DNA of 64,000 nt from Coleofasciculus sp. B1-GNL1-01. Its GTDB lineage: Bacteria; Cyanobacteriota; Cyanobacteriia; Cyanobacteriales; Coleofasciculaceae. The position numbers were made by a program. The stretch is taken from NCBI GenBank assembly GCA_040220235.1, contig JAVJTO010000060.1; one strand, written 5' to 3'. Positions 18,001 through 27,000 of this stretch are shown one piece after another (positions within the stretch are counted from its first letter, which is position 1; each line of letters starts with the position of its first letter).

Positions 18001-21000
18001 ATCCGGTGTTCTCTCTACCTGCTTCTCAAATAACTGATGAATACATTTCTCTAAGGGATATTCACTCTCGGTCTCATTCCACTTCACCAACAACTGATGA
18101 CGTTCTGCTTCACTCAACAAGGGTAATTCAGCTACAGTTTGTTGAGGATTTTCTACAATGGCTGATAACAAGTTCTGAAAATGAGCTGTCATGCGCTCAA
18201 TGGTTGACCCATCAAACAAGTCAGTATTGTATTCCCATTCGCCCACTAATCCCTGAGTCGTTTCAGTCATTGACAGGGTTAAATCAAACTGAGCAATTGT
18301 GCTTTCCCGCTCTAAGGGAGTCAACGTCACACCGGGTAACTCTACTTCCCCCATCGGTGCATTCTGCAAGATAAACATCACCTGAAACAGAGGAGAATGA
18401 CTCAAGGAGCGTTGGGGTTGCAAGGCTTCTACTACTTGCTCAAAAGGCACGTCCTGATGTTCGTAGGCTTTGAGTGTGGTTTCCCTAACTTGTGCCAGTA
18501 AGTCCTTGATCCTGGGATTATCTTCAAAACGGGTTCTCAACACCAAAGTATTCACAAAAAAGCCAATCAAAGATTCAATTTCACGGCGGTGGCGATTGGC
18601 TATAGGAGAACCCATTAAAATATCTGATTGACCGCTATAGCGATAGAGTAAAGTGGCAAACGCCGCCAACAGGGTCATAAATAAAGTTGTCCCCGACTCC
18701 CGAGACAGGGTTTGCAACTTTTGGGTTAAATCAGTATTTAAAGTAAAACTGTGAGTCGTCCCTCGGTAAGTTTGCACAGTTGGACGAGGGTGGTCAGTCG
18801 GTAATTGTAACAATTCTGGCGCACCCTGCAATTGAGAAAGCCAGTAATTGAGTTGAGCTTCTAGTACCTCTCCACTCAACCACTGTCTTTGCCAAATGGC
18901 AAAGTCGGCATACTGGATTGGTAATTCGGCTAAGGGAGATGGTTCTCCTGCACCAAAAGCTTGATATAAACTAGACAGTTCTTGGATAAATACACCCATC
19001 GACCAACCATCAGAGATAATATGGTGCATTGTCAGTAACACTACAGATTCTGTTGCTGATAGCTGCAACAAACTGCACCTAATTAAGGGTGCTATCTCCA
19101 AGTTAAAGGGGGTAATGGCTTCTTGTTGTGCTTGTTGGTGTAGGACAGTTTCTCGTTCTGTTACTTCTAGTGGCTCTAAGTCCACCACATTTATCTTCAG
19201 GGTGGCTTCTGAGTGAATTACCTGTATGGGTGTGCCGTTAACAGTTTGGAAGCTAGTGCGTAGTACTTCGTGGCGGCGTACTATTTCTGATAAGGCTTGT
19301 TGCAGGGCATTAACATCCAAGTTACCACTGAGGCGGACTGCCCCTGGTATGTTGTAAGTGGCACTTGACCCTTCCAGTTGGTTGAGGAACCACAGTCGCT
19401 GCTGGGCAAAGGACAGGGGTAAATCTGTATCCCTTGGGACAGGCAGAATTGGCTTAATACTAAAACTTGAGGCAAAATCAGTTTTTTTCAAAAATTCGAT
19501 TATTTCTGATTTGCGCTCTCGTAGCTGAGACTTCAGAGTCGGTGTCAGCGTTCCTTCAGGGGCATTATAATGTAGCTGCTCACCATCAACCCAGAACCTT
19601 ACGTCTAGACTTTGAAAGCAAGATAAGAATTCATCAATGGGTTTCATAGTATTCCCTCCTCTCGAACACCAAAAGCAGCAGTTGTAAAACTTTGCTGTTT
19701 TTGGGTTGTCAAACGTATATTTTCAACTTGCTCAGATATACCGGCCACAGTCGGTTTCTCGAACAGGCTGCGTAGGGACAACTCCATCAGGAACGCCTCG
19801 CGCATGCGAGAAATAATTTGAGTGGCTAGTAGAGAATGTCCTCCCAATTCAAAGAAGTTGTCGTGGATTCCTACCTTTTGTACGCCTATAACTGAAGCAA
19901 AGATGTTGGCGATTATTTCTTCACTTGCCGTGCGGGGTGCTACGTATTCATGTTCTCGGCTGATTTCTCCATCTGGTGCTGGCAGTGCTTTTCTGTCTAC
20001 TTTGCCGTTAGGTGTTAGGGGGAGAGTGTCTAAGGTGACAAAGGCAGAAGGCACCATGTATTCGGGTAGCTTTGAAAAGAGGAATTCACGCAGTTGCTTG
20101 CTGGTGAGTGATTCATCTCTAGTAACGATATAGGTAACTAAGCGTTTGTTACCAGCAGTGTCTTCTGTCGCAATGACTACAGCTTGTTGGATTTGGGGGT
20201 GGGTGTTGAGAACGGCTTCAATTTCTCCGAGTTCGATGCGGAAGCCGCGAATCTTTACTTGATGGTCAATGCGACCGAGGAATTCGATATTGCCATCCGG
20301 CAGCCAGCGAGCTAGGTCTCCAGTCCTATACAATCTTTCTTCTTCTGCCTTTTGACTTTTCCCGATTTCCTTCGCAAACGGGTTGGGAATAAACTTTTCC
20401 TGCGTTAACTCAGGCAGATTCAAATACCCTTGTGCTAGTCCATCTCCTCCTACATATAGCTCACCCGTAACACCTGGTGGTAAAAGATTGCCATACTTGT
20501 CCAGTATGTAAATTTGTGTGTTTGAAATCGGTTTTCCAATCGGAATCGTATTTTTCTTCATATAGTCTTCTAGAGCTTCTCCTAAATCTGCTTTTGGATC
20601 GTCCGCCAACTGCAAATGTATCGCTTCTTTCACGATAGCAGTTTCTGTACCACTTGAGTCACTTCTTTGTACGGGAAGATTTTTTATACCATCAAGTTTC
20701 CCTTGACTTCTTGCTTCAATTTGATTGGCGATTCTCAGTTGATCCTCAAGAACACTCTGTAAATCTGTAGCGGTTGTATTCGGATTAGACAAAACAGCCC
20801 GAAATACAATGATTTCTTTGTCTTTACCATAGGCAGTGTCCATCAGAGTGCTCTTAGAGACAAAGGTTAGTCCTTGTTCAAATTGTTCTCTTTGTATCTG
20901 TGTATTGAGTTGATTAATTCTTTGGATGTCATCGTCACTCAAGGAGTTTTGTTGTGATTTCGCTCTTAAATTCTCAGGAATATATCGATAATTAACGATA

Positions 21001-24000: not shown

Positions 24001-27000
24001 TGTAGTTTTTCTCCCTGCAACTGTTGTCGCTGCCAGACGGCGAAGTCGGCATATTGAATTGGCAGTTTAGGCAACGGCGAAGGTTTTCCGGTAGAAAAGG
24101 CTTGGTAAAGGGCTGACAATTCACGAATGATTATGCCCAATGACCAGCCATCAAAGACAATGTGGTGGATATTGAATAGCAGCACATGTTCCTGTTCGCT
24201 TAGCTGTACCAGCATCCAGCGCAGCAGAGGACCTTGAAGCAAGTCGAAGGGACGTTGACTTTGCTCAGTCGCGAGGCCCTGGACTTCCATTTTCTGCACC
24301 GCTTTTGGCAACTGGCGCAGATCTACCACGGGCAGTGTCAAGGTCAGGTTTGGGGCAATGATTTGAACGGGTTGCGCCTCCACCATCTTGAAAGTGGTGC
24401 GCAGAGCTTCGTGGCGTTGCACCATCTCGTTGAGACTCTGCTCCAATGACGCCACGTCAAGCAAACCTGTTAGCTGTATTGCTACGTGTTCATTGTAAAA
24501 AGGGTTGCCGGGTTCCAACTGTTGGAGAAACCATAGCCGCTGCTGGGCAAAGGATAAAGATAGATTTCTCTCTCTCGAAACAGGTTGAATAGCCTGAGAC
24601 GTACTGTTTGAGGCAAGATTAGCCTGGTTGAGAAATGCAATAATTTCGGCTTTGCGTTCAGAGATCTGAGCGATTAGATCTGGTGTTAGTGCTTCTTCAG
24701 GGGCATTACAACGCAAGTGATCGCTTTCAACCCAAAGCTTTACATCCAGACTATAAAGGTAAGATAAAAATTTATAAATCGTCGTCATAGCTCTATTTCC
24801 TTTCTTCCTTTCCAAGCTTTACATTCAGGCTATAATCGTAGTCATAGCTCTATTTCCTTTCTTCCTTCTCCGGCAGCAATGGGAGAGCCTGATGCTTGGG
24901 CGAGAGTCAAACGAATTGCTTCAACGCGCTCAGCTAAACCAGCTACGGTGGTTGGTCTCTCAAAGAAACTATGTAGGGACAGCTCTATTTGAAATTCTTT
25001 ACGCAACTGAGAGATAACTTGAATAGCCATTAGAGAATCTCCCCCCAGTTCAAAGAAGTCATCATGGATACCTACTTGCTCGATCCCAACAGCTTGTCGC
25101 CAGGTATTCGCAATAGTTTGTTCGACCTCGTTGCAGGGAGCAACATAGGCATTCCGCAAGTTTGATCTCGAGTGGAGTGATAATGAATCTTTCTTTTTTG
25201 AGTATTCTGTATCTCGTAAAGATTCAAGCTTAAGCCATTGGTCAATCCTCGTGTGCAAGTCTCCAGCCGAGACAACAACTTGAGGGAGTTCAGCCATTGA
25301 TAACACACGCCTAAATGCCTCCACACCTCCCTTTGGGGACATAGCTAATTTAGACAAGGTGGCTCCAATCCCTGCTTCTTGCTTTTCTTCTTCCCTAAGC
25401 CCCCAGTTATCCCAGTTCACGCTAATCCAGGGACAAGAGTCTGCCTGGTCGTGCTTGAAAGCAAAGGCATCCATAAAGATGTTCGCTGCGGAATAGGAAA
25501 CGAATCCTAAGCCTCCCAAAATAGATGCTAAAGAGGATGTTAATAGAACAAAATCAAGATTTCTTCCTTGCAAAACTTTTTCCAAGACAAATAGTCCATA
25601 CACTTTGGGCTGAAATTGCAAATGACTATCGGTTTGAGAAGTTTCTTGAATAGCACAATGTGTATTTTCGAGATTCCCAGCAGCGTGGATGACACCATGA
25701 ATTTCACCAAAGCGCTCATATGTGTGGGAAATTGCTGTCTGCATTTGTTGCTCGCTTGTCACATCGGCACTAATGACCAGAACCTCGACTCCTAGCTCCT
25801 CGATTGTCCGCACTTTCTGTATCTTTTGGCTGACTTTATCCTGCCGATCGTGAGTCGCTAGCCATTGCTCCCACTGGGAGCGCTCAGGCAGCCCCTTTCG
25901 TCCGATTAGGATCAACTTAGCCCGTACTGTCTTCGCTAGATATTCTGCCAATACCAAACCGATGCCACCCAGTCCACCAGTGATTAGGTAGACTCCTCCT
26001 TCCCTCAAACGTGTTCTGCTTGTACTGCTATCATTTAAACGGACAGCTTCAAAGGTCTGAACCCAACGATGATTACCACGGTAGGCAACTACTAAATCAC
26101 TTGGCTGTACGGTAAATTCCCTTATTAAGTGGTCTATCAGTTTCTGTGCTTGCTTTGTCCCAGATTCAGGAATCACTACATCAAAGCTACAGCATGTTAT
26201 GTTTGGATATTCCTGTGGAATTACCTTGCACGGACCTAACACAGTCGCTTTCTCTGGAAATAACTTCTCGTCGCCAGTCACTTCATGTACATTGCTGGTT
26301 ACGACCATGAGTTGAAGAGGCTCAGTAACCTTCTGTTCTCCTAGTGCTTGTGCCAGAAAGAGCAGACTGTAGAAACCGAGATTTTGACAATCTTCAAAGA
26401 ACTGATGTGGTGATTGTGTCTGTTCGCCTAGCTTGTTGCTAGGAAAAGTATTGCTGGCTGTGATACTCCAAAAATGCGCAATCCCTTGTGGGGTTAAATC
26501 CCGACTCTGAAGTTCTTGAACCAGGGCATCATAGTCATCCCGTTGTTGGGGATTAATTGTGTATGCGTACTCACTGAGTTTGCTAAACTGATCTCCCACT
26601 CTCACAGTGATGACATCATGGTTCTGCTGTTCCAGCCGTTTTGCTATTTCTGAGCCGACTCCATAGGCATCGACAAAGACTAGCCAGCATGACTTTAACT
26701 CTACCAGCTCTCTTTCTTGGTAGAAGTCAAGAAGCATAGATTGTTTCCAAACTGGCATGTAGAACCAGTCGGCAATATTTGGTTTCTTGTGTAACGGATC
26801 TTGACGCGCCGTTGCTAGGAAGGTTGACTGGTTTGGTTCAATCCAGTAACGCTGACGCTCAAAGGGATAGGTAGGTAAGGGAATATGATGACGTCGTTCA
26901 TAGGCATAAAAACCTGACCAATCGACTTTGACACCTGCTAACCAGAGACGACCTAAGCTATTCAGTAAAAAGGCGATATCTGACTGTTGCTCCTGGGGAT

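Follow-up and report, generated by a model that had tools for sequence, protein, structure and literature searches.

The gene described here lies in a 64,000-nt stretch of DNA from Coleofasciculus sp. B1-GNL1-01 (contig JAVJTO010000060.1; hereafter the window, whose positions are used throughout). Minus-strand positions 19647-24788 translate as an open 1714-aa protein (P0001), whose stop codon runs into the first bases of the following NRPS gene (12445-19647). Read on the plus strand, 19644-24788 contains many stops. The gene belongs to a co-directional NRPS/PKS cluster that is a cyanobacterial lipopeptide synthetase (Table 1). The cluster encodes FAAL-ACP-C-A-T, TauD, KS-AT-KR-ACP-C and a sulfotransferase; NRPS genes with fused TauD, a free C domain and a class III aminotransferase; and three more NRPS genes that end in a reductase, another aminotransferase and two methyltransferases. 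Three TauD-type dioxygenases are found in the cluster, and a KS-AT-KR-ACP gene lies directly upstream of the target gene.

Table 1. Features of the target gene and its cluster in the window
Feature	Position	Strand	Basis
Co-directional NRPS/PKS cluster around target	639..58962	-	domain content of the genes
Whole gene, docking-C-A(PLP decarboxylase)A-T module, 1714 codons + stop	19644..24788	-	translation, Pfam
TubC_N-type N-terminal docking domain, residues 4-55	24624..24779	-	Pfam 4.2e-22
Condensation domain, residues 74-520	23229..24569	-	Pfam 3.9e-126
A domain N-terminal part, residues 540-842, motifs A1-A5, AMP-binding profile 1-331	22263..23171	-	Pfam, solved A domains, motifs
A4 motif FVDHVAE, residues 729-735	22584..22604	-	motif search
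A5 motif NIYGSSE, residues 825-831, then code residues A834 and D835	22296..22316	-	motif search
Insert, residues 843-1412	20553..22262	-	motifs, relatives, AlphaFold2 model
Guest, PanP-like group II (fold type I) PLP-dependent decarboxylase, residues 872-1364	20697..22175	-	Pfam, TIGR03799 (residues 886-1353), structure match
Codon of Lys1165 in C-G-H-K, predicted PLP-binding lysine	21294..21296	-	motifs, conservation
A domain C-terminal part, residues 1413-1600, PIGKP and A6-A10 including small subdomain	19989..20552	-	Pfam, solved A domains, motifs
Thiolation (carrier) domain, residues 1625-1686, GGHS 1649-1652	19731..19916	-	Pfam PP-binding, motif

Pfam finds AMP-binding in two stretches, the best covering residues 540-842 (profile positions 1-331 of 384), together with Pyridoxal_deC at 910-1269 (E 5.9e-47, profile positions 27-374 of 375), AMP-binding_C at 1522-1596 and PP-binding at 1625-1686; the AMP-binding and Pyridoxal_deC boundaries are those of a preliminary description of the locus, which had reported a docking-C-A-T module with this decarboxylase inside the A domain. 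That description has the second AMP-binding stretch (profile positions 336-384) resume at residue 1410, which agrees with the alignment of solved A domains to residues 833-851 and then again from 1402-1417; the later motifs follow in order (PIGKP 1416-1420, A6 1442-1455, A7 1487, A8 1505, A9 1574, A10 1594). The distance between the end of A5 and PIG is 584 residues here; in six normal A domains encoded elsewhere in the cluster it is 19, 41, 22, 21, 23 and 22. The A domain is thus split between A5 (825-831) and A6 (1442-1455) by ∼570 residues, and Pfam, motifs and alignment bear out the earlier claim that a complete group II PLP decarboxylase interrupts its core subdomain. The guest occupies a surface loop that comes after A5 and the final pair of pocket residues. 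The insert consists of an extra helix (843-852), a low-confidence linker (858-871), the guest fold (872-1364) and a low-confidence return linker (1365-1412); it is 528-585 aa long across 212 embedded relatives and equals a whole stand-alone enzyme in length.

Residues 530-1620 were modelled with AlphaFold2 (mean pLDDT 81.5, pTM 0.67). In the model the two A halves match the solved A domains 4d4i, 4d56 and 4d4h with TM 0.89-0.91 (target-normalised), and the guest matches the solved PLP decarboxylase 4rit, 4rlg and 4rj0 with TM 0.78-0.82. The guest is a ∼490-aa PLP enzyme of a kind that normally works as a dimer, and it is probably a homodimer here: two copies of residues 872-1364 reached an ipSAE of 0.91 (best control 0.00), with at least 92% contact agreement between runs and partner pLDDT of at least 88. 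Of 30 proteins solved as pairs of one chain, 20 attain this ipSAE mark, as does 1 of 23 solved as single chains; the guest's pass may reflect only likeness, because homodimers of its family are solved.

Among NCBIfam decarboxylase models the guest scores best against PanP (TIGR03799), a PLP-dependent aspartate 1-decarboxylase, with 514 bits (the next, DABA decarboxylase, reaches 134), in keeping with its earlier description as aspartate-decarboxylase-like. In a scan of 25 relatives of stand-alone size, PanP is moreover for each of them the sole family with E<=1e-90. The guest shares the PanP fold and its PLP and catalytic-loop residues, but scores below the equivalog cut-off of 606 bits and lies within a larger protein rather than being free-standing. 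Lys1165, His1164 and Asp1133 are invariant in 212/212 embedded relatives; at the conserved Arg1211, 198 of these have R and 14 have K. Conservation reaches at least 85% in both the embedded and stand-alone groups at 72 columns, among them the PLP Lys/His/Asp, Arg1211 and the loop Tyr1193, and this pattern fits selection for catalysis. Six likely active-site positions nevertheless differ systematically between the embedded guests and the stand-alone clade, which contains both proteins passing the PanP cut-off. Three residues before the PLP lysine stands Cys in 212/212 embedded guests and Asp in 33/33 of the clade (C-G-H-K in our guest for D-x-H-K); the catalytic-loop tyrosine motif is Y-Q-A-x in the former (Q in 212/212) and Y-I-(I/L)-R in the latter (R in 31/33), our guest having Y-Q-A for Y-I-I-R. 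Among the guest's closest relatives of solved structure are decarboxylases of glutamate, cysteine-sulfinate and diaminobutyrate, and we found no activity assay for any embedded-family member in the literature. Conversion of aspartate to beta-alanine is our best guess for the chemistry.

The embedded form is widespread, as had been stated: PF00282 and PF00501 occur together in 120/120 of the matches listed at 942-3000 aa and in all of a further 31 proteins of 3001-5000 aa. Of 8000 candidates scored, 217 proteins of 942-3000 aa reach E<=1e-20; the earlier figure was 231 at E<=1e-40. The embedded form is absent from the 40 related genomes searched, with no matching open frame longer than 569 aa; in four of them the match is a stand-alone frame of 554-569 aa with an identity of 45-49%, the range given earlier for five genomes in 50. 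Close matches are likewise missing from all eight congeners, one of which has a 535-aa frame at 32%. Elsewhere, PanP-like domains occur in end-to-end fusions with A domains that are uninterrupted and have a code of the same type: P0199 (PLP-C-A-T-TE, code VDWSISLANK), P0205 (PLP-A, VDWSTSLADK) and P0228 (A-T-R-PLP, VDAAVSLADK). Their PLP parts group in the stand-alone clade.

The code of the host A domain is VDASFSIADK, conserved across the embedded family, with the substrate-anchoring Asp of A4 displaced one place (V235-D236 in PheA numbering, with code positions mapped by PheA motif anchors rather than by an alignment to PheA). Over 212 relatives, down to ∼40% identity, the ten positions are V185/I19, D207, A158/W32/V12, S186/T15, F144/I32/T18, S209, I135/L49/V24, A204, D207 and K207, where numbers are counts; positions 239 (A/W/V) and 299 (F/I/T) are thus variable. 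The ten code positions of the host include no basic residue but two acidic ones (D236, D331). Within 700-842 and 1410-1459, at least 80% of relatives have a basic residue at R705, K724, H732, R771, K797 and K1419; of these, His732, beside the shifted Asp, is kept in 210/212 and might in principle serve to bind a carboxylate. CahD, an uninterrupted C-A-T module of 1057 aa, has an A domain of code IDVTISLADK that its authors assign to the C-terminal beta-alanine of cahuitamycin, in a cluster encoding a separate PanD, CahF (PMC4757757). Every CahD-A code residue falls within the set seen in the embedded family; judged by this position-by-position match, the code of the host is of the beta-alanine type. 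VinN and AfcQ, which activate Asp at its side chain, bind the alpha-carboxylate by an Arg (VinN Arg331, AfcQ Arg311), and AfcQ rejects beta-alanine (PMC12186527).

The decarboxylase had been described as not a known guest of A domains. That proves incorrect, and the accompanying caution that natural-product papers might already hold the design was well placed: Milano et al. (2013), citing Edwards et al. (2004), give JamL of jamaicamide biosynthesis in Lyngbya majuscula (UniProt Q6E7J8 in their list) as KS-AT-ADH-KR-CP-C-HxxPF-A-PLP4-A-CP, with a Pyridoxal_deC 'embedded within the adenylation domain' whose function they called not clarified (PMC3870968). The target gene belongs to this JamL-type A-PLP-A design, which was therefore previously noted. 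Compared by published layout, both have PF00282 inside an A domain followed by a carrier domain in a cyanobacterial hybrid PKS/NRPS, but JamL is fused to the preceding KS-AT-ADH-KR-CP, whereas the target's PKS module is separate and joined by a docking domain. The argument of Milano et al. from a lost N-terminal segment fails for the target: it has 43 residues ahead of its PanP match, and stand-alone relatives are much the same, their matches likewise starting at profile positions 24-60.

The available text of a review on interrupted A domains published in 2024 names only M, Ox, KR and MOx as guests and a8-a9 and a2-a3 as sites (PMC11355689); a PLP-decarboxylase guest and an A5-A6 site are missing from it, in line with the earlier statement that the site is neither of the two known ones. 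Like TioN, KtzH and McyA, the target has one A domain of normal fold split by a whole catalytic domain, but at A5-A6 and by a ∼490-aa PLP enzyme that probably acts before adenylation on free substrate, which M guests 'do not accept' (PMC11355689). CahF/CahD follows the same logic in trans, pairing a cluster-encoded aspartate decarboxylase with a shifted-Asp beta-alanine-type A domain, but CahF is a separate 162-aa pyruvoyl enzyme of unrelated fold. VinN/VinL/VinO, FlvN/FlvO and AfcQ/AfcK/AfcP also combine an adenylating enzyme with a PLP decarboxylase, turning an aspartate into a beta-alanine-type unit on a carrier; they are separate proteins that decarboxylate on the carrier, and activate Asp at its side chain via Arg and reject beta-alanine, whereas the target is one polypeptide with a beta-alanine-type code and no basic code residue.

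We favour, as the probable reading, a self-supplying beta-alanine module. The guest, probably a homodimer, would decarboxylate free L-aspartate to beta-alanine; the host A domain, to judge from its code, would adenylate beta-alanine and load its own T domain; and the C domain, from gene order, would join it to the beta-hydroxyacyl chain from the upstream KS-AT-KR-ACP. A host code of beta-alanine type rather than aspartate-binding suggests that aspartate is decarboxylated in free form, ahead of the activation step, and makes the 'on-line' part of the earlier proposal doubtful, while its Asp to beta-Ala chemistry stands as the best guess. Against the self-supplying module we count the sub-threshold PanP score with the embedded-specific signature, the guests named in the review, which act on carrier-bound substrates (PMC11355689), the three in-trans systems and the conserved His732.

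Several of these points would suit a distinctly less probable course in which the A domain loads side-chain-activated L-Asp on T and the guest decarboxylates it there to beta-alanyl-S-T, a one-polypeptide version of the three in-trans systems. That route is proven in trans: VinO decarboxylates on VinL, VinN accepting 3-methylaspartate and not the decarboxylated acid, and FlvN accepts Asp (PMC11284099); AfcK-bound Asp is the substrate of AfcP (PMC12186527); and Milano et al. speculated that the embedded Pyridoxal_deC acts on a Ppant-tethered substrate (PMC3870968). The embedded clade has lost the near-invariant loop Arg, with five other positions changed; if that Arg binds the side-chain carboxylate of free Asp in stand-alone enzymes, its loss would fit a tethered substrate. 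The host code speaks against this course, being of the CahD-A kind and without the Arg that AfcQ/VinN-type enzymes need. So do the end-to-end fusions, whose PanP-like domains are unmodified: the embedded code VDWSTSIADK (seven members) nearly equals that of P0205, and the two designs therefore probably share their A substrate. SceK, a homologue of VinO, has only 413 aa (PMC5785472) against ∼490 for the guest, which suggests that it may belong to a different enzyme family.

It is unlikely, but conceivable, that the design is the same and another acidic amino acid is decarboxylated, the host loading the resulting omega- or beta-amino acid: 3-hydroxy- or 3-methyl-aspartate (giving isoserine or 3-aminoisobutyrate) or glutamate (giving GABA). 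The PanP shortfall, the guest's own signature and its solved relatives would allow this, the TauD-type dioxygenases could hydroxylate aspartate, and variation at 239 and 299 may reflect substituted substrates in some members; yet PanP is the sole strong family match, the code matches that of CahD-A, whose module is assigned to unsubstituted beta-alanine, and beta-alanine occupies the JamL module position in jamaicamide. A catalytically silent guest, serving only as a structural or dimerisation element with beta-alanine drawn from the genome's PanD, is very improbable: the presence of PanD and the predicted dimer, whose score family likeness may explain, are set against the 72 shared columns and the invariant PLP Lys/His/Asp.

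The end-to-end fusions occur in several topologies, so the pairing of a PanP-like domain with such an A domain recurs without fixed geometry to the carrier. In this genome a pyruvoyl PanD is encoded on contig C109 (166 bits), and a profile search found no PF00282 gene besides the target. The self-supplying module would thus hold, in its guest, an extra decarboxylase dedicated to the pathway.

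The preliminary description placed the target, the gene of the nonribosomal peptide synthetase (NRPS) protein P0001, at 19644..24788; the position stands, and the strand is minus, since stop codons abound on the plus strand. Translation of 19647-24788 on the minus strand gives an open 1714-aa protein whose Pfam domains are listed in the table. The adenylation (A) domain was said to be split by a decarboxylase, and Pfam, the core motifs, PDB alignment and the structural model all confirm this. Core motifs A1-A5 precede the insert, with A5 (NIYGSSE) at residues 825-831, while PIGKP (1416), A6 (1442-1455), A7, A8, A9 and A10 (1594) follow it. 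The spacing from A5 to the PIG motif is 584 residues, against 19-41 in six uninterrupted A domains of the cluster. Both halves align to solved A domains from the PDB and are one A domain with all core motifs A1-A10.

Features of the target protein, its guest domain and the host genome's own aspartate decarboxylase
Feature	Location	Strand	Evidence
TubC_N docking	P0001 residues 4-55		Pfam
Condensation	P0001 residues 74-520		Pfam
AMP-binding, best stretch	P0001 residues 540-842		Pfam; profile 1-331 of 384, plus second stretch
Pyridoxal_deC	P0001 residues 910-1269		Pfam; profile 27-374 of 375, E 5.9e-47
AMP-binding_C	P0001 residues 1522-1596		Pfam
PP-binding	P0001 residues 1625-1686		Pfam
Six-position signature of embedded guests (C1162 for D; S1174 for G; C1176 for V/L; Q1194 for I/M; R lost at 1196; F1303 for R/K)	about 20877-21305	minus	Embedded versus stand-alone column comparison
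PanD, canonical pyruvoyl-dependent aspartate decarboxylase	Own genome (G000), contig C109:10127-10465 (locus L014)	minus	PF02261, 166 bits

Residues 530-1620 were modelled with AlphaFold2 from a 26-row alignment (mean pLDDT 81.5, pTM 0.67). In this model the host strand after A5 leads into one extra helix (843-852) and a short low-confidence linker (858-871); the guest (872-1364) is well folded, with pLDDT mostly 80-96, and a return linker of ∼48 residues (1365-1412), also of low confidence, leads back to the host. Foldseek searches with the model matched the two A halves together to solved A domains (TM 0.89-0.91, normalised by the target) and the guest to a solved PLP decarboxylase (4rit/4rlg/4rj0; TM 0.78-0.82). 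By profile coverage and predicted fold, the guest appears to be a complete catalytic domain. From the motifs, the PDB alignments and the Foldseek matches of the model, we therefore conclude that the interruption is real, keeps the reading frame and disturbs neither fold. The single open frame, the collinear alignments (distant members give single BLAST alignments across A-guest-A at 42-51% identity) and the occurrence of the unit in 13 genomes rule out an artefact of gene calling or assembly.

The guest is predicted to pair with a second copy of itself, at an ipSAE of 0.91 against 0.00 for the best control, although solved dimers of the family may explain this pass by mere likeness. Contact agreement between runs was at least 92% and pLDDT at least 88. 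Among proteins of solved structure, 20 of 30 one-chain pairs and one of 23 single chains attained this ipSAE mark.

The preliminary description also held that the insertion lies outside the two known sites, and this agrees with the parts of a 2024 A-domain review available to us, where interruptions fall at a8-a9 or sometimes a2-a3 and the guests are M, Ox, KR and MOx (PMC11355689); the break in the target differs, lying between A5 and A6. Those parts of the review do not include the decarboxylase-nested design (PMC11355689). The further claim, that the guest itself is new, fails: the design is already in print for the jamaicamide synthetase subunit JamL, given as ...C-HxxPF-A-PLP4-A-CP, with a Pyridoxal_deC domain embedded in the A domain and its function not clarified, in the available text of Milano et al. 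2013, citing Edwards et al. 2004 (PMC3870968). Like the target, JamL has PF00282 nested in PF00501 with a carrier domain after it, a likeness known from the published layout alone as it appears in that text (PMC3870968). The earlier interpretation is thus partly supported, its split domain and insertion site holding and its novelty not. No protein named JamL was among the guest matches listed, including 31 longer-protein matches, and the one Moorena genome in seven that has the guest carries it inside a C-A(PLP)A-T-TE protein, which is not the JamL layout. Jamaicamide reportedly has beta-alanine at the JamL position, and labelled beta-alanine is said to have been fed. Our literature search found no assay of any decarboxylase-interrupted A domain, and the excerpted Milano et al. 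article was the sole description of one that it returned (PMC3870968). The target is a further case of a known, biochemically uncharacterised design.

The best NCBIfam match of the guest is PanP (TIGR03799), covering residues 886-1353 and profile positions 54-522 of 522 at 514 bits, which misses the equivalog cut-off of 606.1 bits; the second decarboxylase model, DABA decarboxylase, scores 134 bits. The closest solved structures are bacterial group II decarboxylases, GAD65/67, GADL1 and CSAD. PanP was the sole family at E<=1e-90 in all 25 stand-alone-size relatives, two of which pass its cut-off (P0248, 752.5 bits; P0241, 629.3 bits). The loss of an N-terminal segment that Milano et al. propose for embedded guests is inapplicable to this guest family, given the PanP profile coverage here and in the stand-alone-size relatives.

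A full-library protein search found 7297 guest relatives at E<=1e-3. Among the best 150 representatives of clusters at 50% identity, 97 are at least 900 aa long and 42 are shorter than 650 aa. The retrieved set of 271 comprises 212 proteins with the order A(N)-guest-A(C), 48 without A flanks and 11 that are fragment-like; across the 212 the insert measures 528-585 aa, and the PLP-binding K1165, the preceding H1164 and the pyridine-binding D1133 are invariant. A FastTree of 139 guest rows was midpoint-rooted, has local supports only and served to group the guests rather than to count origins; of the 150 representatives, 12 were left out as fragments (P0155-P0158, P0166, P0207, P0208, P0233, P0246, P0249, P0264 and P0265). 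One clade (support 98) consists of 33 rows without A flanks and includes both true PanP matches, while in two mainly embedded clades 65/72 and 28/30 rows are embedded.

In 72 columns embedded and stand-alone guests are both at least 85% conserved; they differ systematically, in all or nearly all embedded guests, at six positions, within residues 1162-1196 plus 1303 of P0001. The residues before the PLP lysine read C-G-H-K in the target and D-x-H-K in stand-alone proteins (Cys in 212/212 embedded, Asp in 33/33 stand-alone). The loop with the conserved tyrosine reads Y-Q-A-Q in the target and Y-Q-A-x in embedded guests, against Y-I-[IL]-R in the stand-alone group; its position 1196 is Arg in 31/33 stand-alone proteins and Q66/R52/T32/S24 in embedded ones. 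In this comparison the stand-alone signature, D-x-H-K with Y-I-[IL]-R, is absent from the target guest.

The host specificity code, with positions mapped by motif anchors and given in PheA numbering, is VDASFSIADK. The usual Asp235 is Val, and an Asp stands one place later, in FVDH, while the first code position is D in all six other mappable A domains of the window. The 212 embedded relatives have V185/I19, D207, A158/W32/V12, S186/T15, F144/I32/T18, S209, I135/L49/V24, A204, D207 and K207 at the ten positions. On sequence grounds the host code fits a shifted-Asp, putatively beta-alanine-type pattern, [V/I]-D-x-x-x-S-x-A-D-K. A regex scan of the own genome found FVDH only in the target among 11 A5-like matches, eight of them with an A5-to-PIG distance. 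In 401 genomes of the phylum, a sample of mostly small genomes, a back-translated FVDHVAEIF pattern matched six including the own; just one other genome (G399) encodes FVDHVAEIF itself, and four look like chance matches. Searching the literature with six specificity-code strings gave no match. The anchor for the beta-alanine code, independent of prediction tools, is the cahuitamycin paper: CahD is an uninterrupted 1057-aa C-A-T protein that its authors assign to the C-terminal beta-alanine, its code IDVTISLADK is predicted for beta-Ala, and the same cluster encodes a PanD, CahF (PMC4757757). By motif-anchor mapping, five of the ten host code residues are identical to those of CahD and the other five are conservative, and every CahD residue occurs within the set seen in the embedded family.

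Thirteen named cyanobacterial genomes carry the A-guest-A unit at 76-88% identity. In the three that were annotated it is either terminal and TE-bearing (Moorena sp.) or forms the last or the middle module of a trimodular NRPS followed by PKS; the unit is mobile. The embedded form was absent from 40 relatives of the own genome, and none of eight congeners had a close match; because of these absences the distribution fits acquisition of the target together with its cluster. Three of the 33 stand-alone-clade rows are end-to-end fusions with NRPS domains: P0199 (PLP-C-A-T-TE), P0205 (PLP-A) and P0228 (A-T-R-PLP) each combine a PanP-like domain with an uninterrupted A domain of the same code type, and their PLP parts retain the stand-alone signature. 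Another protein, P0092 (C-PLP-A-T), has an embedded-clade PLP domain flanked by C and by an uninterrupted A domain whose first-position Asp is canonical (code DAASIGHIGK), and may be a rearranged module with different substrate logic.

A PLP alpha-decarboxylase requires a free alpha-carboxyl, so an ordinarily tethered aspartate is not a substrate for one. Two routes are feasible chemically. On balance we favour a route in which the guest would decarboxylate free aspartate to beta-alanine and the host A domain would then activate it, a reading that is probable without being secure. It is favoured because the host pocket is of beta-alanine type; because unmodified, stand-alone-type PanP-like domains are fused, in three layouts, to A domains that are uninterrupted and have a nearly identical code; because a cluster-encoded decarboxylase paired with a beta-Ala module already exists in trans for cahuitamycin; and because, for primary needs, a PanD is already present in the genome, whose only PF00282 gene is the target. 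From the gene order (KS-AT-KR-ACP before the target), the target C domain would acylate the beta-alanine with a beta-hydroxyacyl chain.

Alternatively, the host could activate aspartate at its side chain and the guest decarboxylate it on the carrier. Such an order is proven in trans for vicenistatin and fluvirucin B2 (PMC11284099) and for AFC-BC11 (PMC12186527), according to the portions of those papers available (SceK, a VinO homologue, has 413 aa; PMC5785472). We keep it, as rather unlikely, mainly for the embedded-specific changes in the active site, including the lost loop arginine. Against it, VinN binds the alpha-carboxylate of Asp through Arg331 and AfcQ through Arg311, each at the pocket entrance, and beta-alanine is not accepted by AfcQ, as stated in the accessible text (PMC12186527), whereas the ten host code positions hold no basic residue and have D at 236 and 331. 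Conserved basic residues do lie near the pocket (R705, K724, H732, R771, K797 and K1419), the comparison with VinN/AfcQ being by code positions only. That the guest is a re-tooled enzyme, with Cys replacing Asp ahead of the PLP lysine and without the loop Arg, rather than a nested PanP, and decarboxylates aspartate tethered through its side chain to the module's own carrier arm, we think unlikely. If true, this would make the guest the first fold-type-I decarboxylase to act on-line and in cis in an NRPS. NRPS enzymes are generally taken as monomeric, and because such a guest would have to dimerise the module would then be an obligate dimer.

Between 58962 and 639 every gene lies on the minus strand. 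The cluster runs FAAL-ACP-C-A-T; TauD; KS-AT-KR-ACP-C; a sulfotransferase (minus); two NRPS genes, of which one ends in a TauD domain; a free-standing C domain; a class III aminotransferase; C-A-T; KS-AT-KR-ACP; the target; C-A-T-C...TauD; C-A-T; C-A(MT)-T-R; a second aminotransferase; and two methyltransferases. The sulfotransferase lies mid-cluster, at 45548-46516 (-). Two modules of the window have A codes DLTSIGHIGK and DLTSVGHVGK, which we take to be aspartate-like. At 29521-35172 (-), the free-standing C domain and class III aminotransferase are followed by a C(partial)-A-T whose code, DIWVMTADDK, is acidic at 330 and 331 and which may be another unusual amino-acid module. In-cis C-terminal hydroxylases after a C domain are unusual; here TauD-type dioxygenase domains are fused at the C termini of two NRPS proteins, 39880-45489 (-) and 12445-19647 (-), and a third TauD is free-standing at 52687-53553 (-). 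A second interrupted A domain occurs in the last NRPS gene, 3754-9216 (-): a methyltransferase occupies residues ∼726-866 and AMP-binding resumes at residue 942, profile position 151, near the known a2-a3 site. This gene ends with a reductase domain, after which 639-3715 (-) encodes the class III aminotransferase and two methyltransferases, and this order suggests reductive release, transamination and N-methylation at the C terminus of the product. The cluster is bordered by 60114-63603 (+), on the opposite strand, where an MFS transporter and a penicillin-amidase-family protein are encoded; these may serve export and maturation or self-protection.

For the window, the result is a gain in annotation and not a new principle. 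Beta-alanine units are present in many bioactive peptides and hybrids, and the nested decarboxylase design is very common in sequence data, its family large and neglected. The order of decarboxylation and loading is a directly testable question. Once it is known, genome-mining tools could call beta-alanine at such modules, engineers would gain a transferable module able to produce its building block itself out of a primary metabolite, and the answer would test whether a dimeric PLP enzyme forces the NRPS module to dimerise.
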